NCBI GenBank assembly: GCA_015063395.1
Contig: SVUF01000001.1
Location: 1,336 to 65,335, forward strand
From: Oscillospiraceae bacterium
GTDB lineage: Bacteria > Bacillota > Clostridia > Oscillospirales > CAG-272
Direction: 5' to 3'
DNA length: 64,000 nt
In this document: piece by piece, positions 3,133 through 54,805 of the stretch
Position numbering within the stretch: position 1 is the first letter of the stretch
How the letters are laid out: every line of letters begins with the position of its first letter
Translations under genes and position numbers: made by a program
The notes under the pieces: generated by a model
Database searches by the model: none
Told to the model about the DNA's origin: nothing
The model's input: the letters and a program-made list of their open reading frames with translations, nothing else

Positions 3133-4338
3133 ATGGCAATGTACAACAAAAAGAGCATTGAAGACGTAGAAGTAGCCGGCAAGAAGGTTCTTGTTCGTTG
3201 CGACTTTAACGTACCTATGAAGGATGGAGTTATCACCAGCGACAAGAGAATCGTTGAAGCACTCCCCACAATTAAGTATCTTCTTTCAAAGGGCGCAAAG
3301 GTAATTCTTTGCTCACATATGGGTAAGCCCAAGGGACAGGTAGTTGAAAAGTATTCACTTGCTCCTGTAGCAGCTCGTCTTTCCGAGCTTCTTGGAATTA
3401 ACGTAGCACTTGCAGCAGACACAACAGGCGAGGATGCTAAGGCAAAGGCAGCAGCTCTCAAGGAGGGCGAGGCTATGCTTCTTGAAAATGTTCGTTTTGA
3501 TATCAGAGAAGAAAAGAACGATCCTACAATGGCGAAGGAGCTTGCAGATCTTGCAGAGCTTTATGTAAATGATGCTTTCGGTACAGCTCACAGAGCACAT
3601 GCATCTACAGCAGGTGTTGCTGACTATCTTCCTGCAGTTTGCGGATACCTCATCGGCAAGGAGATCGGCATAATGGGTAAGGCTCTTTCCAATCCTGAAA
3701 GACCCTTCGTTGCAATTCTCGGCGGTGCAAAGGTTAAGGATAAGCTCAGTGTAATCAACAACCTTCTCACAAAGGTTGATACACTCATCATCGGCGGCGG
3801 AATGGCATATACATTCCTCGCAGCACAGGGCAAGGGAACAGGAACATCACTTCTTGATGAGTCCAAGATCGACTACTGCCGTGAAATGCTTGAAAAGGCA
3901 GAGGCACAGGGTGTAAAGATCCTTCTTCCTGTTGATACAGTGGTTGCAAAGGAATTCCCCGATCCTATTGACGCAGAGATCGAAACAACAACAGTATGCT
4001 CATGCTGCATTCCCGAGGACATGATGGGTCTTGATATCGGTGAAAAGACAGCAGCTCTCTATGCAGAAGCAGCAAAGAATGCAAAGACAGTTGTATGGAA
4101 CGGACCTATGGGCGTATTTGAGAACCCCACACTTGCAAAGGGTACAATCGCAGTAGCACAGGCTCTTGCTGACAGCGAGGCAACAACAATCGTTGGCGGC
4201 GGTGACTCTGCAGCGGCTTGCGAGCAGCTTGGATTCGCTTCCGAGATCACACACATTTCCACAGGTGGCGGCGCTTCTCTTGAATTCCTTGAAGGTCTTG
4301 AGCTTCCCGGCATCGCTTGTCTCAACGATAAGGAATAA
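3133..4338 (+). CDS. pgk: phosphoglycerate kinase
   Basis: Full-length Pgk-like translation ([42 protein letters not shown]). GGAGG at 3123-3127 favours ATG 3133 over the track start at 3121. Confidence 0.95.
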
Positions 4339-4429: not shown

Positions 4430-5200
4430 ATGGGTAACAGAAGAAAGAGAACGGTAATTGCCGGAAACTGGAAGATGAATATGACTCCTGCTCAGGCAAA
4501 GGAGCTTGTTTCACAGATTTACAGCAAGGTTAAGGGAAGAAAGGCTTGTGACATCGTTGTATGTGTACCTTTCGTTGATATTCCCGTTGTAGCTTCAATG
4601 GTTAAGGGATCAATCATCAAGGTTGGCGCACAGAACGTACACTACGAGAAGAGCGGTGCTTTCACAGGAGAAATTTCTGCTGATATGCTCAAGGAGTGCG
4701 GTGTTCAGTACGTAATCGTTGGACACAGTGAGCGCAGACAGTATTTTGGAGAAACAGACAAGACTGTAAATCTCCGTACACTTGCAGCTCTTGAGGCAGG
4801 TCTTCGTGTAATCGTATGTGTTGGTGAAACACTTGCAGACCGTGAATCCGATATTACTCGTGAGGTTGTTGCTCGTCAGACAAAGCTCGCTCTTGAAAAC
4901 GTTACTGCAGAGCAGATGAAGAATGTAATCATTGCTTATGAGCCTGTATGGGCAATTGGAACAGGCAAGACAGCTACCAATGAACAGGCTAACGAGGTTT
5001 GCGGAATTATCCGTCAGGTAGTTGCTGACAAGTACGGTAAGGTTCTTGCAAAGTCCACAGTAATCCAGTACGGCGGAAGCATGAATGCAAAGAACGCAGA
5101 AGGACTTCTTTCTATGAACCACATCGACGGCGGTCTTATCGGCGGCGCTTCTCTCAAGCCCGATGACTTTGCTGCCATCGTTCTCGCAGCTCAGGAATAA
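4430..5200 (+). CDS. tpiA: triosephosphate isomerase
   Basis: TIM hallmarks are present (AGNWKMN, VIVGHSERR, AYEPVWAIGTG, YGGS), and AAGGAG lies upstream. Confidence 0.95.
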   Translation: MGNRRKRTVIAGNWKMNMTPAQAKELVSQIYSKVKGRKACDIVVCVPFVDIPVVASMVKGSIIKVGAQNVHYEKSGAFTGEISADMLKECGVQYVIVGHSERRQYFGETDKTVNLRTLAALEAGLRVIVCVGETLADRESDITREVVARQTKLALENVTAEQMKNVIIAYEPVWAIGTGKTATNEQANEVCGIIRQVVADKYGKVLAKSTVIQYGGSMNAKNAEGLLSMNHIDGGLIGGASLKPDDFAAIVLAAQE

Positions 5201-5223
5201 TTTGGTTTTATAACGATTTCTAC

Positions 5224-5690
5224 GGGGAGAAACTTTTTGAAAAAAGGTTTCTCCCCGTACCCCTCTTCAAAAACTTTAGGAAATAGAGAAATTTATCGTT
5301 TTTTGCTTGTGCGCAAATTTTTCACGAATAAAATATATTTGTTTTAGGGGTGCAGCGTCACGCTGCCTTTTTGAAAAAAGGTTTCTCCCCGTACCCCTCT
5401 TCAAAAACTTTAGGAAATAGAGAAATTTATCGTTTTTTTGTTTGTGCGCAAATTTTTCACGAATAAAATATATTTGTTTTAGGGGTGCAGCGTCACGCTG
5501 CCTTTTTGAAAAAAGGTTTCTCCCCGTACCCCTCTTCAAAAACTTTAGGAAATAGAGAAATTTATCGTTTTTTTGCTTGTGCGCAAATTTTTCACGAATA
5601 AAATAATTTGTTTTAGGGGTGCAGCGTCACGCTGCTTTTTTCAAAAAGTTTCTTTGGTGGGGTAGGGCAAAGCCCCCAAAAAAATAATCA
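5224..5690. repeat. Tandem array of a ~134-bp modular intergenic repeat (three full units plus a diverged fourth start)
   Basis: The landmark tttttgaaaaaaggtttctcccc recurs at 5234, 5368 and 5503 and, diverged, at 5636 (periods 134/135/133). Each unit contains the hairpins GGGGAGAAAC..GTTTCTCCCC (complete only in unit 1) and GCAGCGtcaCGCTGC. The array ends in ggtggggtagggcaaagccccc. Confidence 0.9.
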
Positions 5691-5701
5691 AAGGAAATGA
5701 A

Positions 5702-7147
5702 ATGAATAGATATAAGAAGCTGATGGCTAATTCGGGAATGATAGCCATAGGAAATTTCGGATCGAAACTTTTAATATATTTTTTGATCAGGTTTTACACG
5801 GCGTATCTTACACCTGAAATGTACAGTACGGCGGATCTGATCACACAGACGTCGAAGCTTCTCATGCCGATCATGTCCCTCGGAATCGCCGAGGCGGTAT
5901 TCAGATTTGCTTTGGATAAAGAAAATGATAAACGCGAGGTATACTCGGCAGGGTTATATATCCTTGGCGCAGGATCTTTGCTTTTGATACCCGTGTTTAC
6001 GGTATTTACCGTTATGGGTCTTTTTGACGGGTATTCATATCTGATAGTACTGTATGTAATAGCGGCAAATCTTCACGGAGTAACGACCTTATATATAAGA
6101 ACGAAGGACCATTTCAAATTTTTTGCAGTACAGGGAATAATCAATACCGGAACAATGGTGGTACTGAATATTTTGTTCCTTGCCGTATTTAAAATGGGGG
6201 TTGAGGGATATGTGCTGTCGGGAGTAATTGCAGATTTGTTCTCGACCTTTATAGTATTTGTAAAGGAAAAGCTTTGGAGGGACATCGTACTGCCCAAAAG
6301 GATTGATAGGAATATCTTCCGCAAAATGCTGAAGTTCAGCTTGCCGATGATCCCAACCAATATTTTGTGGTGGGTGACCAATGTTTCCGACAGATATGTT
6401 GTAAAGTATTTTGAAGGAGATTTTGCCAACGGACTGTATTCGGTGGCGTATAAGATTCCGTCACTGCTTGTTTTGATATGCTCCATATTCATTCAGGCGT
6501 GGAACTATTCATCGGTTAAGGAAGAAAACGAAAAGGAACGGAAGAAGTTTTTCAGTACGGTATTTTCAGCATATTCGGCAATACAGTTTTTGGGAAGTTC
6601 AGCAATAATGCTGGTGCTTGATATTCTGGTGGTCATGCTGTTTGACCCTAAATTTCACGGAGCGGCATTGTATATACCGACATTGGTGTTTTCAACGGCA
6701 TTTTCAAGCCTTGTAACGTTCCAGGGAAGTGTATATACACTGAATAAGAAAAGCATGAATCTGCTGTATACAGCAATAACTGCGGCTCTTGTGAATGTTG
6801 TTCTGAATTTTGTATTAGTTCCAAATTCTCTGTTTGGAGTTAAAATGGCGGGACTTGGAGCAATCGGAGCGGCAATAGCAACGCTTATCAGCTATGTGGT
6901 GGTGTTTGCTGTCAGAGCTATCAATATTAAAAAGGTATATCCTTTTGATATGAAGATCGGGTATCTCGTGGCAAACGCTGTTTGCGTGGGGATACAGTGC
7001 ATAGTTGCAACACTTCGACCCGAAGGTTATATTTTCTATCAGATCCCGATTTTTATAGCAGTGATAATAATAAACTTAAAATCCCTTTCGGCAACGTTTA
7101 AAAAGCTGATTTTCAAGGATAAAAAGCCTGAAATGATAGATAATTGA
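5702..7147 (+). CDS. polysaccharide/oligosaccharide flippase family protein (MOP/Wzx-SpoVB-like, multi-TM)
   Basis: 481-aa polytopic membrane protein. Its N-terminus (KKLMANSGMIAIGNFGSKLLIYFLIRFYT) and overall hydrophobic pattern are typical of polysaccharide biosynthesis (Wzx/MurJ superfamily) proteins. Confidence 0.7.
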   Translation: MNRYKKLMANSGMIAIGNFGSKLLIYFLIRFYTAYLTPEMYSTADLITQTSKLLMPIMSLGIAEAVFRFALDKENDKREVYSAGLYILGAGSLLLIPVFTVFTVMGLFDGYSYLIVLYVIAANLHGVTTLYIRTKDHFKFFAVQGIINTGTMVVLNILFLAVFKMGVEGYVLSGVIADLFSTFIVFVKEKLWRDIVLPKRIDRNIFRKMLKFSLPMIPTNILWWVTNVSDRYVVKYFEGDFANGLYSVAYKIPSLLVLICSIFIQAWNYSSVKEENEKERKKFFSTVFSAYSAIQFLGSSAIMLVLDILVVMLFDPKFHGAALYIPTLVFSTAFSSLVTFQGSVYTLNKKSMNLLYTAITAALVNVVLNFVLVPNSLFGVKMAGLGAIGAAIATLISYVVVFAVRAINIKKVYPFDMKIGYLVANAVCVGIQCIVATLRPEGYIFYQIPIFIAVIIINLKSLSATFKKLIFKDKKPEMIDN

Positions 7148-7172: not shown

Positions 7173-7210
7173 CCCCGACAGATTTTTCGGTCTGTCGGGG
7201 TATTGTTTTG
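7173..7210. terminator. Bidirectional-looking intrinsic terminator hairpin between convergent genes
   Basis: Perfect 10-bp stem ccccgacaga (7173-7182) / tctgtcgggg (7191-7200) with T-rich flanks. A near copy occurs at 55137-55166. Confidence 0.7.
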
Positions 7211-7241
7211 TAATTATTTAAAATTTTAGATTGAATAAATT

Positions 7242-7574
7242 TTAATCTCCCGGTCTTGGATTGTTTGGCAAAGGCACTCCGTTTTCATCTCTGTTTATTG
7301 GAGTTGCTTTAAGATGAAAGTGTATGCTTTTGCATGGACATACTAAATTCATTTCATATTTTGAGTTTGAACCTCTATGAGTAAAATCTCCTCCGCATCT
7401 TATAACTTCACACCATGTATATACCTGTGACATCAGTCGTGGGCACATACCGGCGGGACATTCATATGTAAAGACGAACTTATCTCCTTTTTCAAAACCA
7501 AGTCGACAATTAGCTGATCTACCTTCAATAGCTGTCAATTCAAATTGCCAATCTTCTACTACCCATTTTTTCAT
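7242..7574 (-). CDS. small Cys-rich protein, TIGR04076-like (function unknown)
   Basis: 110 aa with the pattern C..G...GD.F.F....P.G.CP...(W)...GG.F.....CP, reminiscent of the TIGR04076 family. The assignment is from memory only. Confidence 0.45.
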   Translation of the reverse strand: MKKWVVEDWQFELTAIEGRSANCRLGFEKGDKFVFTYECPAGMCPRLMSQVYTWCEVIRCGGDFTHRGSNSKYEMNLVCPCKSIHFHLKATPINRDENGVPLPNNPRPGD

Positions 7575-7618
7575 GCTATAAATCTCCTTTTAGAAAGCTG
7601 ATTTAGTGAAAAAAGTTT

Positions 7619-8152
7619 TCAAGCTTTAAAATACCATTTCATAGGATTAGTATATATATAATTTCGTTTTGTTTCATAATCCTCTCTGTTGCGAATAATA
7701 TGTTCTGCTGAGGACCTTTGGAATATTTTTTCTATACCATATTGTTGTTTGCAAATACGGGATGTTAACGATTTAAAAGCACAGATCACATCATCCAACG
7801 TAGGGGAGGGGCTTGCTCCTCCCGCTATTTTATGCAAGAATATAATTGCGTGTATGTGGTCTGGCATAATTACATAATCCTTGATAGAAACGGTTGGAAA
7901 TCTTTTCTCTATCAAGGATAATTGTTCTTTTGCGATCTTTCCGCAGGGCTTTAGTTTTACGGTATATTCGGGAGGAGCAAGCCCCTCCCCTACGTACAAA
8001 CCGGTGGTTTTGTCTATAAAAGCGAGATCGGTTTTAATTACTTCGGACAATAGTTGTTTTCTGTCCCTTGTGCAAATAGTAACAAAATACAATTGCTTCG
8101 AACTGTAATCAAAATTCTTCAATCTGGTGGATTTTCTTTTTGGAAGTTCCAT
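7619..8152 (-). CDS. REP-associated tyrosine transposase (RAYT) / IS200-like Y1 HUH transposase family protein
   Basis: 177 aa with an HUH motif (MPDHIHAII) and a C-terminal Tyr helix (RNYIYTNPMKW). The N-terminus (RLKNFDYSSKQLYFVTICT) is typical of the COG1943/RayT family. Confidence 0.8.
   Translation of the reverse strand: MELPKRKSTRLKNFDYSSKQLYFVTICTRDRKQLLSEVIKTDLAFIDKTTGLYVGEGLAPPEYTVKLKPCGKIAKEQLSLIEKRFPTVSIKDYVIMPDHIHAIIFLHKIAGGASPSPTLDDVICAFKSLTSRICKQQYGIEKIFQRSSAEHIIRNREDYETKRNYIYTNPMKWYFKA
7798..7824. repeat. Left arm of a perfect 27-bp inverted repeat inside the RAYT ORF
   Basis: acgtaggggaggggcttgctcctcccg. The exact reverse complement is found at 7969-7995. Confidence 0.95.
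7969..7995. repeat. Right arm of a perfect 27-bp inverted repeat inside the RAYT ORF
   Basis: cgggaggagcaagcccctcccctacgt is the reverse complement of 7798-7824. The arms are separated by 144 bp. Confidence 0.95.
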
Positions 8153-8173
8153 TGTAATTTTGTTAAACAGTGT

Positions 8174-9829
8174 TTATTGCGGCTTATAGGAATCCTTCAA
8201 GGAAACAGAACGGTTGAACGTGCTCGGGTTCTTGGTGTCGGGTGTGAAATAGCCTGTTCTTACAAATTGGAACTTGTCACCCGGCTTTGCGTCCTTGAGG
8301 GAAGCTTCTGCTTTGCAGTGTGTGAGCTTCTTTACTGAATCGGGGTTTACATAATCAAGATAATTCTCACCTTCGGGAAGAACGATCATGTCTTTTCTTG
8401 TAAACAGACGGTCATAAAGCATTACGTCAACGTCGATACACTCGGTAGCAGATACCCAATGGATCGTTCCCTTGATCTTTCTTCCGTCAACGGGATTTCC
8501 GTTTCCGCTTTCAAGGTCAGCGGTGCAGAGGATCTCCTTGATGCTTCCATCTTCGTTCTTGACAATTTCGTTGCACTTAACGATATAAGCGCCCATGAGA
8601 CGAACTTCACCGTCGGGCTTCATTCTGAAGAATTTCGGGGGAGGAACCTCGGCAAAGTCCTCGCGGTCGATGTATACTTCCCTTGTAAATGGTATCTTTC
8701 TTGTACCTGCTTCAGGGCAGTTAGGGTTATTTGTTACCTCAAAGTATTCAGTTTTGTCCTCGGGATAGTTGGTGATCACTACCTTTATAGGATCGAGAAC
8801 GCAGATACGTCTTTCTGCCTTTTGGTTCAGCTCCTCGCGCAGACAATGCTCAAGAAGCTCAATGTCAACAATGCTGTTGGCTTTGGCAACACCTGTTCTT
8901 GCGGCAAAATCAAGAATTGAGGAGGGTGTATATCCGCGGCGTCTGAGGGCCTTCAGAGTGGGCATTCTGGGGTCGTCCCAACCGTCAACTCTGCCTGTTT
9001 CAACAAGCTCGCGGAGATATCTCTTACTCATTACGGTGTAGGTCACGTTCATTCTTGCAAATTCTCTCTGCTTGGGCTTATGCTCAAATCCGATATTGTC
9101 AACTACCCACTCATAAAGAGGACGGTGGTTTTCAAATTCGATGGAGCAAAGGGAGTGCGTGATGCCCTCAAGTGCGTCCTGAATGGGATGTGCGTAGTCA
9201 TAAAGAGGATAGATGCACCACTTGTTACCCTGACGGTGATGAGTTGCTCTTACAATTCTGTAGATGGCAGGGTCGCGCATGTTAAGGTTTGGGGAAGCCA
9301 TATCGATCTTTGCTCTGAGAGTTTTTGAGCCATCGGCAAATTCACCGTTTTTCATTCTCTCAAAAAGATCAAGGTTTTCTTCGATGCTGCGGTTACGGTA
9401 GGGGCTGTCCTTGCCGGGCTCGGTAAGGGTTCCGCGGTACTCACGCATTTCGTCCTTGGAAAGATCGCAGACATATGCCTTTCCGTCCTTGATGAGCTTT
9501 ACTGCAAATTCATAGCAGGCGTCAAAATAGTCGGAGCCGTAGTAAATTCCGCCGTCGGGCTCAGCACCAAGCCACATTAGATCCTCGTAAATGGACTCTA
9601 CATATTCGTTGTCCTCTTTTGCAGGGTTGGTGTCATCATAACGGAGATTGAAAAGACCGTTGTATTTCTGTTTTGTTGAGTAGTTGATCCATATCGCCTT
9701 TGCACTTCCGATGTGAAGATATCCGTTGGGCTCGGGCGGAAAACGGGTGTGGATCTTTTCAACAGCGCCTTCAGCAAGGTCGGCGTCAATTATATCATGT
9801 ATAAAATTACCTTTGATTTCTTCTGCCAT
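8174..9829 (-). CDS. glnS: glutamine--tRNA ligase
   Basis: Class I motifs are present: RFPPEPNGYLHIGSAKA (HIGH) and VMSKR (KMSKS). The 551-aa length is typical of GlnRS. Confidence 0.93.
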   Translation of the reverse strand: MAEEIKGNFIHDIIDADLAEGAVEKIHTRFPPEPNGYLHIGSAKAIWINYSTKQKYNGLFNLRYDDTNPAKEDNEYVESIYEDLMWLGAEPDGGIYYGSDYFDACYEFAVKLIKDGKAYVCDLSKDEMREYRGTLTEPGKDSPYRNRSIEENLDLFERMKNGEFADGSKTLRAKIDMASPNLNMRDPAIYRIVRATHHRQGNKWCIYPLYDYAHPIQDALEGITHSLCSIEFENHRPLYEWVVDNIGFEHKPKQREFARMNVTYTVMSKRYLRELVETGRVDGWDDPRMPTLKALRRRGYTPSSILDFAARTGVAKANSIVDIELLEHCLREELNQKAERRICVLDPIKVVITNYPEDKTEYFEVTNNPNCPEAGTRKIPFTREVYIDREDFAEVPPPKFFRMKPDGEVRLMGAYIVKCNEIVKNEDGSIKEILCTADLESGNGNPVDGRKIKGTIHWVSATECIDVDVMLYDRLFTRKDMIVLPEGENYLDYVNPDSVKKLTHCKAEASLKDAKPGDKFQFVRTGYFTPDTKNPSTFNRSVSLKDSYKPQ

Positions 9830-9865
9830 GTTATTTTACTCCTTTTGGTTTGGATTTGTTTTTTT

Positions 9866-10033
9866 GGGGCGTTGCCCCATACCCCACCAAAGAAACTTTT
9901 TGAAAAAAGTTTCTTTGGAATCTTCAAAAACTTTTGGGATTTTGGATATGATTTAGAGGCACTGACTAAAATAAAAAGAAAACCTCAATTATAAAAGTTT
10001 TTTGATCCAAACTTTTTTACAAAAAAGTTTGGT
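9866..10033. repeat. Mosaic of hairpin repeat modules filling the gltX-glnS spacer
   Basis: The modules are ggggcgttgccccataccccacc (9866-9888), the palindrome ccaaagaaactttttgaaaaaagtttctttgg (9887-9918), cttcaaaaacttttggg, and a 39-mer at 9995-10033 that is identical to 47606-47644. Confidence 0.9.
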
Positions 10034-10053
10034 AAAAAGCCCCATTATAAATA

Positions 10054-11745
10054 TCATAAATTACAAATAAAATTTTTAATTCTTTCGTTGACCTTGTCCT
10101 GACCGATGATCTGCATTATGGTGTAGAGATCGGGTGAGTTGAGCTTGCCCGTAACAGCAACGCGCAAGAACATGCTGACGTCGCCAACGTGTCCGCGGTA
10201 GGCATCGGGGTTTGATTTATAAAGCTTAACATCGGGAGCATATCCGATCTGCTCGGAGATAGCCTTTACGTTTTCAAACCAAGCGTTGTTATCGCAGGCG
10301 GGGTCATAGGTTGTCATGAATTTTTCAAGAGCGGATTTTACATCAGCTTTTGAGAAATTTTCGGGGATCTCGTCGATGTATGAGAAATAATCGTCATAGA
10401 AAAGGGACATATAGGGCTTAACATCCGTCCATGTTGCAAAGTCCTTACGGGGCTTCTTGCCGCCTCTGCCAATTGACAGGATCGCTTTTGCATAGTCCTC
10501 GTCGGCGGTAAGCTTTTCGTAGAAGTGGGGGTCAAAGTCCTTTGCCCACAGAACAACTTCGTTGTAGACCTCTTCTGCTGTCATTCTGCAGATCACGTTT
10601 TTTGAAACGTCATTCAGCTTGTTAAAGTCGAAAAGACAGCCGGAGGTTGACATTTTTTTGATGTTGAAGGGAAATTCTGTGTATGGCTTTTCGGGATTTT
10701 GTGTGTGCCATTCCTCGTAGTTGGAGTTGAGCAGAGTCATGATATATTCGATGACAGCCTTAGGTGAATATCCCATGCGTGTATAGTCGTCCATGTTTGC
10801 GCCCATATCACGTTTTGAAAGCTTCTTTTTGTTTCCTTCCTCGTCAAGACGCATGATCTGAGCGATGTGCATATATTTTGGAAGCTTAAAGCCAAGATAT
10901 TCAAAAAGCATAATGTGACGGGGCAGGCTGGGGAGCCATTCCTCACCTCTGATTACATGTGTGGTGCCCATGAGGTGATCGTCCACTGCGTGAGCAAAAT
11001 GATATGTGGGGATTCCGTTGCTCTTGAGGAGAACCTCGTCCTTATCGTTTACGGGAAGCTCCAATGTGCCTTTGATGAGGTCGGTGATCTTTATTTTCTT
11101 TTCGGGATCATCGCATTTTGCAAGCATACGGAGTACAAATTGGTCACCGTTTGCAAGATGGGATTCAACCTCTTCTATGGTGATCTCGCGGAGCTTCAGC
11201 ATTTCAGCCATTTGTGCAGCAGTCGCTTCCTCTGTCCATTCTTTATTTTTGATCTCTGTTTTTTTGTCGGTCTTTTCAAGCTCCTCAAGCTCTTCAGCCG
11301 ATGTGAATACAGGGTAGGCAAGACCTTTTTTTACAAGCTCCTTGGCAAATACGTGGTAGATCTCTTTACGCTGACTCTGCTTGTAGGGACCGTAATCGCC
11401 CTTGGAACCAATTGCGCCGTCCTCGTTGATCACTGCGCCCTCGTCAAATTTGATGCCATAGCGTTCAAGGGTTTTTATAAGACCTTCTGCGGCGCCGGGA
11501 ACCTCTCTTTTTCCGTCGGTGTCTTCGATTCTGAGGTAAAATACACCACCCGAAAGGTGAGCAAGTCTTTCACCTACGGTTGAAGGGAAAAGACCGCCAA
11601 AATGTACAAATCCCGTGGGGCTTGGGGCAAATCTGGTAACCTTTGCTCCTTCGGGGAGCTGTCTTTTGGGGTATCTCTGCTCAATTTCCTCGGGAGTGAG
11701 TGTCACATCGGGAAAAAGCAGATCCGCAAGTTTCTGATAATCCAT
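10054..11745 (-). CDS. gltX: glutamate--tRNA ligase (long form)
   Basis: RFAPSPTGFVHFGG (HIGH-type) and KLSKRD (KMSKS) are present. The protein is 563 aa. Confidence 0.9.
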   Translation of the reverse strand: MDYQKLADLLFPDVTLTPEEIEQRYPKRQLPEGAKVTRFAPSPTGFVHFGGLFPSTVGERLAHLSGGVFYLRIEDTDGKREVPGAAEGLIKTLERYGIKFDEGAVINEDGAIGSKGDYGPYKQSQRKEIYHVFAKELVKKGLAYPVFTSAEELEELEKTDKKTEIKNKEWTEEATAAQMAEMLKLREITIEEVESHLANGDQFVLRMLAKCDDPEKKIKITDLIKGTLELPVNDKDEVLLKSNGIPTYHFAHAVDDHLMGTTHVIRGEEWLPSLPRHIMLFEYLGFKLPKYMHIAQIMRLDEEGNKKKLSKRDMGANMDDYTRMGYSPKAVIEYIMTLLNSNYEEWHTQNPEKPYTEFPFNIKKMSTSGCLFDFNKLNDVSKNVICRMTAEEVYNEVVLWAKDFDPHFYEKLTADEDYAKAILSIGRGGKKPRKDFATWTDVKPYMSLFYDDYFSYIDEIPENFSKADVKSALEKFMTTYDPACDNNAWFENVKAISEQIGYAPDVKLYKSNPDAYRGHVGDVSMFLRVAVTGKLNSPDLYTIMQIIGQDKVNERIKNFICNL

Positions 11746-20691: not shown

Positions 20692-20910
20692 TAAATAAAT
20701 TAACCAAAAAGCTTTGGCTGTTTGGAAAAGCAAAGGGAACTTTTTATAAAAAAGTTCCCTTTGTAAAAGTTTAATGTTTTAATCAAAGTATTAAAAATCT
20801 GAAAAATTGATGCTTTTATCAAAATATTAAAATATAAAAAAGCAAAAAAGGTTATTAAATTTTGGTTTGGAGCAAAGCTCTGAAAAAGAAAAGCAAAGAT
20901 GGGGGAAGAA

Positions 20911-45762: not shown

Positions 45763-47490
45763 TCAGTCTACATTTGAAATGGCATTGATCATTTCCGTAA
45801 CCTTTGCCTTGATAAGCTCTGCCGCGTTGTCTGCGGTGAGATCTACGGTAAAGGACTTATCTCTTGCGGAAAGCTCAATTGCTCCTCGTTCAAGAGTTCT
45901 TGGGCTGACAACTGCACGGAGAGGTACGCCTATAAGGTCTGCATCTGCAAACATAGAGCCTGCACCGATGTTTCTGTCATCATAGATAACCTCAACGCCA
46001 AGCTTTTTCAGATCCTCATAGAGCTTATCCGCTGTCTTTCTTACATTTTCATCGTCAACACGGAGAGCGCAGAGCTGAACCTGCCACGGTGCTATGGTAA
46101 TGGGCCAGATAGGTCCAAACTTGTCACGGCGTACCTGACATACGGAGGCGATAAGTCTTCCCACACCGATACCGTAACAGCCCATAATGGGGCACTGAAG
46201 CTCGCCGTTGCTGTCAAGGTACTGAAGTCCCATGGATTCTGTATATTTTGTTCCAAGCTGGAATATATTACCAACCTCAATACCGCGGCTGATCTTAATG
46301 GAATGCTTGCCGCAAACAGGACATATACCGCCCTCAAATGCTTTTGCAACGCTTACGTATTCAACATCTCCAATATCACGAGCCATATTCATTCCAACAT
46401 AGTGGTAGTCGGTCTTGTTAGCCCCCGCAACGAAGCTTTCAAGAGTGCGAAGTGACTCGTCATATACAACGGTAACGCCCTCGGGGAGTCCCTTGGGTCC
46501 TATATATCCTGCGCAAACCCCCATTTCCTCGGTGACGATTGCAGGGTGGATATCTGCCTTCAAGTGATTCTTGAGCTTTGTTTCGTTTACGTCAAGGTCA
46601 CCTCTCAGGAATACGATAACAAGGGAATCGTCAACGTTTCTCTGATAAAGCACTGCCTTGCATGAATTGATGGCAGGCTTCTTGAGGTATGTACATACCT
46701 CCTCAATTGTTTTATATCCGGGTGTGTGAACCTCGGCAAGCTCTTCAACTCCGCAGGGAGCATTTTCAACAATGCAGTCAGCCGCTTCCATATTGGAACG
46801 GTAATTACATTCGGGACAGATCACAATTGTGTCCTCACCGATGTCTGTAAGAAGCATGAATTCATGGGAAACGCGTCCGCCCATCATGCCCGAGTCGGAT
46901 TTAACTGCCACGACCTCCGGTACTCCGCAGCGTGCGAAAATACGCTCGTAGGCATGGTAGCAAATCTCATAGTACTTTTCAAGATCCTCTTGTGAGGTGT
47001 GGAAGGAGTATGCATCCTTCATTGTAAATTCACGGGTACGGATAAGTCCTCCGCGGGAACGGGGCTCATCTCTGAACTTGGTCTGGATCTGGTAGATCAT
47101 GAACGGATATTTTGCATATGACTGAGCCACATCTCTTACGATCTGAACAGCCGCTTCCTCATGTGTCATTCCAAGGACCATATCAATGCCGTTTCTGTCC
47201 TTGAAGCGCAGAAGCTCGGATCCGATGGAATCAAAACGTCCCGATTCCTGCCACAATGCTCCGGGCATTACTACGGGGAACAATACCTCCTGTCCGTCGA
47301 TTCTGTCCATTTCCTCTCTCATGATGGTTTCGATCTTGTGGGCGATACGCTTTGTTGCAGGGAACATTGAGAATACTCCTGTTCCAACAGGCTTGATATA
47401 TCCGCCCCTCATCATAAGTGACTGGCTTTCAATTATACAATCGGCAGGAGCTTTTTTTTCGGTTTTAAATAATAATTGCTGTACCTTCAT
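45763..47490 (-). CDS. proS: proline--tRNA ligase (bacterial type with an editing insertion)
   Basis: 575 aa. The N-terminus (ESQSLMMRGGYIKPVGTGVFSMFP) and the class II motifs and anticodon-binding C-terminus are typical of ProRS. Confidence 0.92.
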   Translation of the reverse strand: MKVQQLLFKTEKKAPADCIIESQSLMMRGGYIKPVGTGVFSMFPATKRIAHKIETIMREEMDRIDGQEVLFPVVMPGALWQESGRFDSIGSELLRFKDRNGIDMVLGMTHEEAAVQIVRDVAQSYAKYPFMIYQIQTKFRDEPRSRGGLIRTREFTMKDAYSFHTSQEDLEKYYEICYHAYERIFARCGVPEVVAVKSDSGMMGGRVSHEFMLLTDIGEDTIVICPECNYRSNMEAADCIVENAPCGVEELAEVHTPGYKTIEEVCTYLKKPAINSCKAVLYQRNVDDSLVIVFLRGDLDVNETKLKNHLKADIHPAIVTEEMGVCAGYIGPKGLPEGVTVVYDESLRTLESFVAGANKTDYHYVGMNMARDIGDVEYVSVAKAFEGGICPVCGKHSIKISRGIEVGNIFQLGTKYTESMGLQYLDSNGELQCPIMGCYGIGVGRLIASVCQVRRDKFGPIWPITIAPWQVQLCALRVDDENVRKTADKLYEDLKKLGVEVIYDDRNIGAGSMFADADLIGVPLRAVVSPRTLERGAIELSARDKSFTVDLTADNAAELIKAKVTEMINAISNVD

Positions 47491-47522
47491 ATTTTCTCTC
47501 CTTTTTACTTTAGGTTATTTTA

Positions 47523-47664
47523 GGGGAACTTTTTTTCAAAAAGTTCCCCTATAACCCCTCAAAAACTTTTGGAATTGTTGTATAAATAACTGAATCCTTT
47601 TATTGAAGTTTTTTGATCCAAACTTTTTTACAAAAAAGTTTGGTGGGTGTGGGGCAAAGCCCCA
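47523..47664. repeat. Mosaic of hairpin repeat modules filling the thrS-proS spacer (same architecture as 9866-10033)
   Basis: The modules are ggggaactttttttcaaaaagttcccc (47523-47549), cccctcaaaaacttttgg, a 39-mer at 47606-47644 identical to 9995-10033, and ggtgggtgtggggcaaagcccca (47642-47664). Confidence 0.9.
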
Positions 47665-47674
47665 TACTAAACAA

Positions 47675-49450
47675 TTAATCTTTGATCTGATCAAGAGCAG
47701 TGATGAGGTCGAGGGATTTTTCCTCGTTCATCTGCTCGGACATTTTGAGGAATGTGGTGTAGGGAATGCCGTTGAGGCTCTTGCCGCCGCGGATGTTGAG
47801 GGAAACTGCCTCTTCCTGAACTTCCTTGTCGCCGATTACAATTACATAGGGAAGTCTTTCGTTCTTGTACTTCTTGATCTTTTCCTTCATGTTGGAATCG
47901 GAGGTGTCGAGCTCATAGCGGATCTTCTTCTTTCTGAAGATTGCTGCAAGCTTTTCAGCATATTCGTTATGCTCGGGGCGGATGGGAACTATGCCTACCT
48001 GAACGGGAGATACCCAATAGGGGAATGCGCCCTTGAAGTTTTCGATGAGGATTCCGAGGAATCTTTCCATTGAACCGTAGATTACGCGGTGAATGATAAC
48101 AGGGGTCTTCTGTGAGCCGTCGGAATCGGTGTAAGTGATGTCAAAATTACGGGGGAGCTGGAAGTCGAGCTGGATGGTACCCATCTGCCACTGACGCTTC
48201 AGAGCGTCCTTCATCATAATGTCGATCTTGGGACCGTAGAATGCGCCGTCGCCTTCGTTGATGTCATAGCCGCCCTCACCGTATCTTGCGTCGAGAATAG
48301 CCTTAAGAGCTGTTTCGGCCTTATCCCAAAGTTCAATGTCGCCCATAAAGTCATCGGGTCTTGTGGAAAGCTCGGGACGGTATTCAAGACCGAAGATTCC
48401 GTAGAATTTGTCAGCGATGTCGAGGATCGCGTTAACCTCGTCAAAGATCTGATTTTCGGTAATGAAGTTGTGTGAGTCGTCCTGACGGAACATCTGAACT
48501 CTGAGAAGTCCGTTTAGCTCACCTGACTTTTCCTTTCTGTGAAGAACGTCGCAGTCGGAAAGTCTGAGGGGAAGCTCTCTGTAGGAGCGGCCCTTTCTCT
48601 TGTAAACGATAATTGAGTTGGGGCAGTTCATGGGCTTTACGCCGTAGGTTGTGTTCTCATCGATATTGATGGTGAACATATTGTGCTGATAGTGATCCCA
48701 GTGTCCCGAAGTAACCCAAAGAGAGTTGGAGTTGATGATGGGAGAAGAGATCTCCTGATATCCGCGAGCCTCGTGCTCCTCGCGCCAGAAATCGAGAATG
48801 AGGTTGAAGAGCTTCCAGCCCTTTGGAAGCCAATAAGGCATACCGGGGGCAGTTTCGTCCATAAAGAACAGATCAAGCTGAGGACCGAGCTTTCTGTGGT
48901 CGCGTTCCTTTGCTTCTTCAAGGAACTTGAGATGCTCTTTCAGCTCATCCTTGGACTTAAATGCGAACACATAGATTCTCTGGAGGTTTTCTCTCTTTTC
49001 GTCGCCTCTCCAATATGCGCTGGAGCAGGATTTGATCTTGTAGGCGCAGTTGAGAAGATCCTGTGAGTTGTCAACGTGAGGGCCACGGCAAAGATCCACA
49101 AAATCGTTGCCTGTTTTGTAGATCGTGATCTTTTCGTTCTCGGGAAGATCGTTGATAAGCTCCACCTTAAAGGGCTGATCTGCAAAAAGCTCAAGGGCAG
49201 CCTCACGGCTGAGCTCTTCACAGGTGAAGTCCTCTTTACGTCTGAGGATCTCTCTCATTTTATCTTCGATCTTTGGGAAGTCCTCTGAAGTAATGGATTG
49301 GGGAAGCAAAAAGTCATAGTAGAAGCCCTCGTCGATCTGCGGACCGATTGCAAGCTTTGTGTTTTCCTTACCGTATATTTCGGTAACGGCTTTAGCAAGA
49401 ATGTGAGCTAAAGAGTGACGGAAACACTGATTGAAAATTTCCTTGTTCAT
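47675..49450 (-). CDS. thrS: threonine--tRNA ligase (short form; begins at the editing domain with no N-terminal TGS domain)
   Basis: The editing-domain HSLAHILAKAV lies at the extreme N-terminus. A class II core and an anticodon-binding C-terminus follow. A T-box leader with an ACC specifier lies upstream. Confidence 0.92.
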   Translation of the reverse strand: MNKEIFNQCFRHSLAHILAKAVTEIYGKENTKLAIGPQIDEGFYYDFLLPQSITSEDFPKIEDKMREILRRKEDFTCEELSREAALELFADQPFKVELINDLPENEKITIYKTGNDFVDLCRGPHVDNSQDLLNCAYKIKSCSSAYWRGDEKRENLQRIYVFAFKSKDELKEHLKFLEEAKERDHRKLGPQLDLFFMDETAPGMPYWLPKGWKLFNLILDFWREEHEARGYQEISSPIINSNSLWVTSGHWDHYQHNMFTINIDENTTYGVKPMNCPNSIIVYKRKGRSYRELPLRLSDCDVLHRKEKSGELNGLLRVQMFRQDDSHNFITENQIFDEVNAILDIADKFYGIFGLEYRPELSTRPDDFMGDIELWDKAETALKAILDARYGEGGYDINEGDGAFYGPKIDIMMKDALKRQWQMGTIQLDFQLPRNFDITYTDSDGSQKTPVIIHRVIYGSMERFLGILIENFKGAFPYWVSPVQVGIVPIRPEHNEYAEKLAAIFRKKKIRYELDTSDSNMKEKIKKYKNERLPYVIVIGDKEVQEEAVSLNIRGGKSLNGIPYTTFLKMSEQMNEEKSLDLITALDQIKD

Positions 49451-49499
49451 TTGGTTTCTCCTTATATCTTAAAATATCAATAACAAATTTACGGAAGGA

Positions 49500-49714
49500 C
49501 GCCTAAAAATAAAGAAAGCATCCTTAATTGATCCCGAAAGGGAAAAATTTAAGGACGCAATTTATGCGCGGTTCCACCTTAATTGTATGAAAACATACCA
49601 CTCATTTAATGTATAACGATGTCAAAAGCGAAGTGGTTTCGACGCTTGGGGCTTTTACTGCACTCACACCAACGGCAGCTCTCTGCGAAAAGCTTGTCAA
49701 GGCTACTTGTCTTC
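49500..49714 (-). promoter_or_regulatory. T-box riboswitch leader (Thr-specific) of thrS
   Basis: On the minus strand: an AGAGA/GA motif, a GGUGUGAG distal-loop-like motif, the specifier context GAA-ACC-A (ACC = complement of 49635-49637), the T-box sequence AATTAAGGTGGAACCGCG (complement of 49567-49584), and a terminator gcgtccttaa...ttaaggatgc followed by a U-run (49506-49558). Confidence 0.85.
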
Positions 49715-49720
49715 TCGGTG

Positions 49721-49749
49721 ATTATAGCATTTTCTTTATATTTTGTCAA
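49721..49749 (-). promoter_or_regulatory. consensus sigma-A promoter of the thrS T-box leader
   Basis: On the minus strand: TTGACA (49749-49744), a 17-nt spacer, then TATAAT (49726-49721). Confidence 0.7.
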
Positions 49750-49921
49750 GTGGTGCGGAAATTTTTTTGAAAAAACTATTGACTTTTACCCTACGGAAAA
49801 TGATAAAACATAATAAAACATGGGGAGAAGGCAGCGCAAAGTGTCTATTGTGGATAATAACCAAATATCATATTATGAATTTGTGCATAAAAGAGAATTG
49901 CGAAAAATCCTTAAAACTCTG

Positions 49922-49951
49922 TTGACAATCATGTGACTGTTATGGTATAAT
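49922..49951 (+). promoter_or_regulatory. consensus sigma-A promoter at the head of the AT-rich membrane-protein island
   Basis: TTGACA (49922-49927), an 18-nt spacer, then TATAAT (49946-49951). AAAGGAGG (49966-49973) and ATG 49982 follow. Confidence 0.65.
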
Positions 49952-50018
49952 TGTGATACAAGGACAAAGGAGGTATTTGTCATGAAAAAATAAAAAGAGA
50001 ATTATAAGAGTAATTGCG

Positions 50019-54475: not shown

Positions 54476-54565
54476 AAAAAGAGACCATTAGGAACGTTCT
54501 CATAAGGATGTTTACAAATGTTGTTTTCTCTGCCGATTTGTGTTATAATGGTGGCAGCAAAAAAG

Positions 54566-54753
54566 CCTTCCTCCGAGAGGAAGGGGGACCACGAAGTGGT
54601 GGAAGGAGCCTGCGTAACTTTGGGTTTGGAGTAATCTCATTGTAACGCACTCTCCCTCAGTCGCTAACGCGACAGCTCCCTCCCGGAGGGAGCCTTGGTA
54701 TACGTGCAACCATAGGGGCATGGGCTTTGCCCTATGCCTTTGTAATACAAAGG
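54566..54753. repeat. Cluster of at least five different GC-rich hairpin modules (REP/MITE-like)
   Basis: The modules are ccttcctc-cga-gaggaagg (54566-54584), gtcgc-taac-gcgac (54660-54673), gctccctcc-c-ggagggagc (54675-54693), ggggcatgggctttgccctatgcc (54715-54738) and cctttgta-a-tacaaagg (54737-54753). Confidence 0.85.
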
Positions 54754-54805
54754 CGAAACCGGCGATAAAAGGAAAAATAATAGTTTATTTAAAAGGAGAA
54801 AAGGT

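Follow-up and report, generated by a model that had tools for sequence, protein, structure and literature searches.

A tandem palindrome mosaic in the tpiA-flippase spacer of an Oscillospiraceae bacterium and its probable origin by local duplication

Introduction

How a non-coding segment of about 134 bp came to stand three times in a row beside a core glycolytic operon, and whether a transposase homologue encoded nearby put it there, is the question raised by a 64,000-nucleotide stretch of DNA from an Oscillospiraceae bacterium (GenBank assembly GCA_015063395.1, contig SVUF01000001.1, positions 1,336 to 65,335; hereafter the window). The segment forms a head-to-tail array of 133-135 bp units in the spacer between tpiA and a flippase gene. 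A first-pass annotation of the letters alone took it for the amplification of a unit resembling repetitive extragenic palindromes (REPs) and bacterial interspersed mosaic elements (BIMEs), next to a gene for a REP-associated tyrosine transposase (RAYT). We find the array to be a real, well-delimited, probably unstable and ordinary kind of bacterial repeat, with no new system or mechanism; with a probability of roughly 0.65, judged from its boundaries and internal variants, it arose by local duplication of a REP/BIME-like palindrome mosaic through repeat-mediated recombination and is neither a gene nor a product of transposition.

REPs and BIMEs are extragenic, are typically present in more than 100 copies per genome and carry GTAG (GT[A/G]G) at the 5' foot of the hairpin, and the same REPs flank the cognate RAYT gene. 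To our knowledge, REP/RAYT biology is almost unstudied in Gram-positive anaerobes, and our literature search on REP-like elements in Ruminococcaceae/Oscillospiraceae found nothing relevant. GTAG-tagged REPs of Proteobacteria are reiterated in tandem together with flanking DNA (Di Nocera et al. 2013, PMC3733652; Nunvar et al. 2010, PMC2817692), and Group 1 RAYTs have been reported in Clostridia (PMC5581495). The REPINs of REPIN-RAYT systems are dispersed doublets and not head-to-tail arrays (Bertels & Rainey 2011, PMC3116915).

The array and its units

Tandem Repeats Finder (TRF) reports a single array in the window, at 5233-5647, with a period of 135, 3.1 copies, 97% matches and a score of 795; no other tandem repeat of the 64 kb comes near it in strength or has a long period. 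The three-and-a-bit tandem copies of ~134 bp originally described are thereby borne out, and the landmark TTTTTGAAAAAAGGTTTCTCCCC is found exactly where it had been placed, at 5234, 5368 and 5503 (shuffled sequences give an expectation of 0), with a diverged fourth start, CTTTTTTCAAAAAG, at 5635-5648. Unit 1 (5233-5366, 134 nt), unit 2 (5367-5501, 135 nt) and unit 3 (5502-5634, 133 nt) all read on the plus strand, and were delimited by unit alignment and, for units 1 and 3, by TRF as well. The units differ from one another in three columns only, namely a T6/T7 run, a private C>T of unit 2 at 5441 and a 1-nt deletion in unit 3. Unit 1 consists of a palindrome core with its right arm, a box, an AT-rich spacer and a small hairpin. 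As the first description had it, both arms of the stem occur in unit 1 alone: the left arm GGGGAGAAAC is confined to that unit, where it completes a hairpin at 5221-5259, and units 2 and 3 have half a palindrome each. The array starts inside one core (5233-5246) and ends inside another (5635-5648), with a core-to-core spacing of 134 bp.

The complete palindrome, P1 (TACGGGGAGAAAC-TTTTTGAAAAAAG-GTTTCTCCCCGTA, 5221-5259), lies 20 nt past the tpiA stop codon and was recognised both as an inverted repeat and by RNA folding, as a 39-nt hairpin with an 18-bp stem, a fold of -26.4 kcal/mol and a z-score of -5.9. Next to it stands the box CCCCTCTTCAAAAACTTT (5260-5277, and again at 5394-5411 and 5529-5546, plus strand), which a scan of the window finds three times as an exact match, always inside the array, and which reads on the minus strand as AAAGTTTTTGAAGA-GGGGTAC-GGGG, that is, as a head preceding the palindrome; related boxes occur at 9924-9937 and 47559-47572. 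The AT-rich, weakly promoter-like segment TTGCTTGTGCGCAAATTTTTCACGAATAAAAT (5303-5334, 5438-5469 and 5573-5604, plus strand) has no other site in the window. The unit closes with a small GC hairpin, GCAGCGTCACGCTGC, that is called terminator-like by the terminator scan (5352-5366, 5487-5501 and 5621-5635, plus strand). This hairpin has a 6-bp stem with five GC pairs and a 3-nt loop, is followed by CTTTTTG or TTTTTTC and matches the intrinsic-terminator pattern; its fold is -10.8 kcal/mol with a z-score of -1.85, and the form GGGGTGCAGCGTCACGCTGC is found three times in the window, in each case inside the array.

The terminus of the array (5635-5683, plus strand) is built of the second core CTTTTTTCAAAAAG, the right arm TTTCTTTGG, the head GGGGTAG, the GC hairpin GGGCAAAGCCC (5665-5675) and an A-run. 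Spelled out from the arm onwards it is TTTCTTTGG-TGGGGTAG-GGCAAAGCCCCC-A7, followed by the ribosome-binding site of the flippase gene, and the GTAG-headed hairpin in which the array had been said to close is present as GGTGGGGTAGGGCAAAGCCCCC at 5655-5676.

The unit is part dispersed repeat, comprising half of the long palindrome with core CTTTTTGAAAAAAG plus the box CCCCTCTTCAAAAACTTT, and part lineage-specific spacer: its first ~45 nt (core, right arm and box) belong to a dispersed family, and the other ~85 nt (AT-rich segment and GCAGCG hairpin) are unique to the locus. The proposal that its modules occur singly elsewhere in the window consequently applies to the palindrome core and arm and to the TCTTCAAAAACTTT box (9859-9937 and 47523-47572) and has to be dropped for the AT-rich segment and the GCAGCGTCACGCTGC hairpin, which are found in the array only. 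Exact scans for the AT-rich segment gave no match in the genome-contig collection and none in the metagenome-contig collection, the latter result being uninformative as that collection is evidently without the Joint Genome Institute (JGI) samples that carry the segment; the whole spacer had no blastn match among plasmids and phages. Derivation of the unit from a miniature inverted-repeat transposable element or another transposon is not supported: the units are in head-to-tail order, and the whole unit occurs nowhere else in the window, the genome-contig collection, plasmids or phages.

Copy number in related assemblies

Copy number was compared among contigs that encode a TpiA identical to that of the window, from JGI metagenome samples 3300031555 and 3300029705 (two-copy) and 3300032167 (three-copy); all of this evidence comes from short-read assemblies. 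One independent JGI assembly, L003, has a 522-bp spacer with three units and is 100% identical to the window over 3,180 bp, the private C>T of unit 2 included. Two others have a 387-bp spacer with two units, equivalent to units 1 and 3 of the window, and differ from it by one single-nucleotide polymorphism (SNP) in the flanks (L001) or by none (L004). In the metagenome-assembled genome (MAG) GCA_045595565.1 (L110), which is 97-99% identical, one contig ends inside unit 1 and another begins with CCTTTTTG, the form of a unit junction; at least one unit is seen there, and these contig ends suggest that there are probably two or more, with the assembly broken at the array.

The presence of at least two units is therefore certain, and three units are supported by two independent assemblies. 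The difference between two and three is either rapid variation or assembly collapse, and of the earlier suggestion that copy number is strain-variable it can be said that the number does differ between assemblies (three in the window and L003, two in L001 and L004), with short-read collapse as the alternative.

Origin of the array

The array starts and ends inside two palindrome cores, and its middle unit mixes features of the units on either side; both observations point away from transposition and towards replication slippage or unequal crossing-over as its source. The starting spacer would have contained, in order, the long hairpin with core CTTTTTGAAAAAAG, the CCCC..TCAAAAACTTT box, the AT-rich spacer with the small GC hairpin, a second core, and the GGGGTAG-headed GC hairpin. 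Its two cores, 134 bp apart, would be direct repeats sufficient for slippage or unequal crossing-over, either of which would duplicate the segment between them, and homologous exchange between units would then shift copy number between two and three.

The middle unit is informative in this respect. Unit 2 has the T7 run as in unit 3 and ATATATT as in unit 1, so that in the unit alignment it combines the left marker of the one with the right marker of the other; unequal exchange within a two-copy allele, between its units, would produce precisely such a hybrid, and deletion of the hybrid would equally regenerate the two-copy allele. The terminal core of L110, TTTTTTGAAAAAAGG, is in the orientation of the start core and makes a direct repeat of ~15 nt with it; in the window the centre of the terminal core is inverted. 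A supporting parallel is provided by the sister mosaic upstream of glnS, which in L110 is also internally duplicated (~103 nt). The array resembles the general case of slipped-strand mispairing or unequal crossing-over between short direct repeats in that its period equals the distance between two 14-15-nt cores, in its hybrid middle unit and in its varying copy number, and shows no distinctive difference from it.

Several points weigh against this origin. The assemblies show directly where the array begins and ends, that its middle unit is mosaic and which allelic forms occur, but the single-copy ancestor is one that we infer, and a one-copy allele of the window's lineage was not found among the retrieved contigs. 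The unit junction reads GCTGC-C-TTTTTG, with one C beyond what a simple crossover in the T-run would leave, and an extra substitution or indel would be needed to account for it. The two-copy contigs, with flanks nearly identical to those of the window, could be collapsed three-copy arrays, and the change in copy number can be read as two to three or as three to two. Finally, a terminator or insulator effect of the units would be pure inference, and the small hairpin is not exceptional (z -1.85).

The distribution among relatives bears on the polarity of the mosaic itself. Three sister lineages (L085, L086 and L109; ~90% DNA identity, TpiA 98-99% identical) keep the P1 hairpin 20 nt after tpiA and nothing more of the array, homology to the window ending at ~5267: the L109 spacer, 114 nt long, consists of the hairpin, GCACTCTTTTTGG and a ribosome-binding site, and the spacers of L085 and L086 (~230 nt) are of unrelated sequence. 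Species with 80-82% TpiA identity retain the pgk-tpiA-flippase synteny, with spacers of 102-153 nt and ordinary terminators. Since the sister lineages keep only P1 and the more distant species have short spacers, the mosaic downstream of P1 and its amplification are derived features of the window's lineage. Among GTDB species representatives the closest reaches only 74% TpiA identity, and the tpiA-flippase spacer is not shared with the closest representatives (TpiA at most 74% identical).

At orthologous positions the palindrome core can have its centre in either orientation (TTTTTGAAAAAAG versus TTTTTTCAAAAG), as seen in the window at 5233-5246, in the P1 loops of L085, L086 and L109 and at the array end of L110. 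These orientations suggest inversion of the hairpin loop between lineages.

A dispersed palindrome family

Members of the family were sought by short-word blast of the spacer against the window and inspection of the matches. Two sister mosaics were recognised, one between two Glu/Gln-tRNA synthetase genes (9859-10040, minus strand), with a GC hairpin, head, complete palindrome, box, spacer and second palindrome, and one between thrS and proS (47523-47665, plus strand), with a palindrome, box, spacer, second palindrome and GGGTGT-GGGGCAAAGCCCC. A single palindrome without a mosaic lies near 20740, and the census of REP-type elements in the 64 kb amounts to three mosaic loci, this lone palindrome (~20740) and one cassette without a RAYT gene (54715). 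The recurring modules (core palindrome, box, second palindrome, and head with GC hairpin) are arranged in differing order at the three mosaic loci. The GC hairpin GGGCAAAGCCC occurs four times exactly in the 64 kb, and at five sites when one mismatch is allowed, against 1.0 expected; hairpin heads are GTAG (5662), GTAT (9867, minus strand) and GTGT (47647), and GTAC stands ahead of the long palindromes; these heads resemble the canonical tetranucleotide without equalling it. Core hairpins with different, compensating arms are also present at MAG loci of other Oscillospiraceae/Clostridia (L016, L059, L087 in inverted form, L045 and L088), often directly after tpiA, and related hairpins follow tpiA in L016, L059 and L087.

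The array terminus (5635-5683) has a counterpart at 9859-9909, to which it is 92% identical in reverse complement. These 51-nt inverted repeats, on the plus and minus strands respectively, bracket the 4.2-kb segment from the flippase gene to glnS, and each lies directly upstream of a start codon, that of the flippase gene or of glnS. They could have a common role in 5' untranslated regions or could mediate inversion; no inverted arrangement of the segment was seen in L001 or L110, and a third copy of the terminal motif (47640-47665) is at the 3' end of a gene and not at a 5' end.

In L110 the sister mosaic upstream of glnS (3369-3730) contains an extra, diverged copy of ~103 nt of an internal segment (TAGAGGCACTGACTAAA...TTTTTTACAAAAAAG), a duplication that rests on blast offsets and inspection of the sequence and was not flagged by TRF. 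Its GGTGGGGATTGGGGCAAAGCCCC hairpin is intact; the window has a deletion near 10030.

Possible functions of the units

An open reading frame (ORF) of 87 aa at 5276-5539 on the minus strand is rejected as a gene, being repeat-derived, with a TTG start, no Shine-Dalgarno sequence and a match to Pfam DUF6548 (E 2.6e-4, 21.3 bits) below the cut-off of 27.3; the match may be spurious, or it may hint that similar repeats, in translation, account for some members of DUF6548. Searches of the spacer with Rfam 15 returned hairpin look-alikes only (miRNA models), far below the gathering score. The promoter scan asked for two hexamers of sigma-70 type with at least 9/12 matches at a spacing of 16-18 nt, and no site on the plus strand of the units passed it, the best by eye being TTGTGC-16-TAAAAT (~8/12); the promoter-like sequence first proposed (TTGCTT, 17 nt, GAATAA) falls below the threshold on this strand. 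A promoter reading was set aside, as sites are no more numerous than shuffled sequences would lead one to expect.

REPs in E. coli act as terminators or 3' stabilisers. By analogy, and given its conserved position after tpiA across lineages, P1 may do the same for tpiA. Glycolytic genes are usually highly expressed, and pgk-tpiA is expected to be so. Each extra unit would insert a weak hairpin-plus-U-tract terminator and a weak promoter-like AT stretch between pgk-tpiA and the flippase gene, and the most that copy number would do is adjust read-through into the latter.

It is unlikely that the array goes beyond this and is a selected regulatory device, in which tandem promoter/terminator or small-RNA units set or phase-vary flippase expression, or stabilise tpiA mRNA, through their copy number. 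Each unit does contain a terminator-like hairpin with a T-run and an AT-rich stretch (TTGTGC-16-TAAAAT / TTGCTT-17-GAATAA), but the promoter match is sub-threshold, sites are no more numerous than in shuffles, a transcript from the putative promoter would reach the terminator after ~30 nt, and Rfam gives no match. Near-identical strains differ in copy number and intergenic arrays of 100-160 bp recur next to tpiA in unrelated Clostridia MAGs, yet close relatives do without the whole segment. In the sister element the terminal 51 nt also immediately precede the start codon of glnS, although the third copy of the terminal motif has the 3' location noted above.

The arrays beside tpiA in other Clostridia MAGs are unrelated in sequence, intergenic, with a period of 99-161 bp and two to three copies (L023 4778-5003; L034 3503-3964 and 4801-5129; L041 3612-3945; L054 4944-5235; L088 126-415), and were listed with no control for the frequency of arrays elsewhere in those genomes. 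They adjoin tpiA directly, except for that of L088, which is ~4 kb upstream of the gene and adjoins a core palindrome.

The RAYT-like gene

A homologue of Y1 HUH transposases, 177 aa long and RAYT-like, is encoded at 7619-8152 on the minus strand, 1.9 kb from the array. It matches NCBIfam NF047646 (REP_Tyr_transpos; E 6.6e-18, 65 bits), below the cut-off of 80, and PDB 4ER8, the TnpA_REP of E. coli (E 5e-5), with which its PDHIH (HUH-type) and YIYTNP stretches align; it has no Pfam match. The protein has more than 1,000 homologues; the top 120, from Clostridia MAGs, share 64-99% identity with it (mostly 73-79%), and some are named RayT by JGI. In the metagenome-contig collection homologues are found at only three loci. 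A RAYT homologue is followed by TAAGGGGTATGGGCTT(T/C)GCCC... in three of the six lineages examined (L097, L100 and L101; not L099, L102 and L103), and a regular expression for head plus hairpin, run over 789 kb, hits only the array end, 9867 (minus strand), 54715, L097 and L101. Because this motif is nearly restricted to the array end and the 3' flanks of RAYT homologues, the terminal GGGGTAG-GGCAAAGCCC hairpin is plausibly the cognate REP-like sequence of the RAYT-like family, by analogy with REP-RAYT systems, and to judge from its motifs "REP/BIME-like" would be a fair description of the array.

The gene is part of a strain-variable module of 969 bp, comprising a TIGR04076-like and the RAYT-like gene (7205-8173, minus strand), that is present in the window and in L001. 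GCA_045595565.1, at 97-98% identity, is without it (L110 1705-1712), the flippase terminator there abutting the 3' end of glnS, and no boundary repeats of the module were seen in comparing the window with L110. The RAYT-like gene of the window has no hairpins on its immediate flanks. Because of this, and because L110 has array sequence (at both contig ends) without the module, proximity of the RAYT gene is not evidence of causation, and the weight it had been given is lost, as the association is not conserved.

Amplification of the array by this Y1 transposase homologue or a paralogue, recognising GTA(N)-headed hairpins and acting replicatively in a REPIN-like manner, is accordingly very unlikely. 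The alignment of PDHIH and YIYTNP with TnpA_REP would suit it, as would GGGGTA(T/G)-GGGC-N3-GCCC at the array end and 3' of RAYT homologues (L097, L100, L101), near-absent otherwise in the 789 kb, and the GGGGTAC-GGGG ahead of the palindrome arm on the minus strand of each unit. However, the units follow one another head-to-tail, with ~85 nt of locus-specific DNA outside the palindromes, their boundaries fall in hairpin loops and not at heads, units 2 and 3 have only half a palindrome, and unit 2 combines markers of units 1 and 3. Nor does the unit occur elsewhere in the window, the contig collections (the metagenome one being weak for this purpose), plasmids or phages, and both the bare flanks of the gene in the window and its absence beside the array sequence of L110 count further against it. 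The first-pass statement that amplification beside a RAYT gene suggests recent activity or recombination thus survives as to the neighbourhood (a RAYT-like gene 1.9 kb away, a palindromic family, and a terminal motif shared with the 3' flanks of RAYT homologues) and as to recombination, for which the core-loop boundaries and the mosaic unit 2 speak; RAYT activity is the part to be given up.

The window has, at 54476-54805, a RAYT-less copy of the non-coding cassette that elsewhere surrounds RAYT homologues. Its 5' part (54488-54552) has an extended -10 promoter, TTGTTT-17-TGTTATAAT, its 3' part (54714-54773) reads GGGGCATGGGCTTTGCCC..CCTTTGTAATACAAAGGCGAAAC, and both parts match the flanks of RAYT genes in L096/L097, L100 and L101. 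In place of the ORF stand ~160 nt that are GC-rich, look structured and match no Rfam family.

A broader reading, which we consider possible though doubtful, would group the long core palindromes with the box and with the GC hairpins headed by GGGGTA(K), as an undescribed population resembling REPs/REPINs or palindrome-associated transposable elements (PATEs). This population would belong to a highly conserved Clostridial RAYT/IS200-like cassette, in which a Y1 transposase gene stands between a 5' hairpin with a strong promoter and a 3' GGGGTAT-GGGC hairpin, and the window's mosaics at 5221-5690, 9859-10040, 47523-47665 and 54476-54805 would be non-autonomous derivatives of the cassette.

Gene context

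The gene order around the array is a CotH-domain protein gene, pgk, tpiA, the array and a Wzx-like flippase gene, followed on the minus strand by the TIGR04076-like, RAYT-like and Glu/Gln-tRNA synthetase genes. Pfam assignments agree with the flanking genes as first named: upstream is tpiA, for triosephosphate isomerase (4430-5200, plus strand; PF00121, E 6.7e-97), whose product is identical to MBE6542762.1 from a MAG labelled Ruminococcaceae/Oscillospiraceae bacterium, and downstream is the gene for a Wzx-like polysaccharide flippase (Polysacc_synt; 5723-7147, plus strand; PF01943/PF13440, and gene calls in L001 and L003), with a called start at 5723 and a longest-ORF start at 5702. Four aminoacyl-tRNA synthetase genes (two GlxRS, ProRS and ThrRS) lie in the window at 8174-11745 and 45763-50018, yet across the whole 64 kb neither a T-box nor any other Rfam family scores at threshold; this includes the 568 nt upstream of thrS (49451-50018).

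Discussion

The array is like the REP clusters and BIMEs of Proteobacteria in having short, dispersed extragenic palindromes in mosaics with other short motifs, a GTA(G/T/C) tetranucleotide ahead of the hairpin, clusters of REP and adjoining DNA in head-to-tail order, and a RAYT-like Y1 HUH gene in the genome with homologues that have the same hairpin on one flank; P1 and the GGGCAAAGCCC hairpin are short (~20-40 nt) imperfect stem-loop palindromes of the REP kind. It differs in that its host is a Gram-positive gut anaerobe, its main palindrome is 39 nt long with a conserved AT-rich core and variable GC arms, its head is not consistently GTAG, and few copies can be counted within 64 kb. Moreover, the RAYT-like gene of the window is without flanking hairpins and below the NCBIfam cut-off, and most of the array unit is non-REP spacer. 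With REPIN-RAYT systems the locus shares inverted palindrome pairs able to fold into larger hairpins and a highly conserved RAYT homologue, whereas the array is head-to-tail, the window data give no evidence of a large REPIN population, and RAYT homologues stand in varied neighbourhoods across genomes and are strain-variable here, more like insertion sequences than domesticated genes.

The least probable of the alternatives is that the three copies, or the difference between two and three, were produced by short-read mis-assembly: every source is a short-read metagenome assembly, the 135-bp unit is near common read and k-mer lengths, the contigs of one MAG break exactly at the array and the flanks of two-copy and three-copy contigs are identical, but three variant columns tell the units apart, one of them a SNP private to unit 2, an identical three-unit sequence with that SNP was assembled independently from another sample (L003), which speaks against the artefact considered at the outset, and every assembly spanning the locus has at least two units.

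Local duplication of a palindrome mosaic by recombination between its cores would make the array a concrete case of dispersed palindromes driving spacer expansion beside a core glycolytic operon in Gram-positive anaerobes. It also explains the breaks of MAG assemblies at the tpiA-flippase locus. Should its instability be real, the array would serve as an inexpensive marker of strains in an uncultured Oscillospiraceae lineage of the rumen or gut. If the doubtful reading of a RAYT/IS200-like cassette were true, recombination-prone cores would make spacer length beside housekeeping genes a fast-evolving, strain-level character in gut Oscillospiraceae, and in any case the locus provides an entry point to the REP-like elements of these bacteria.

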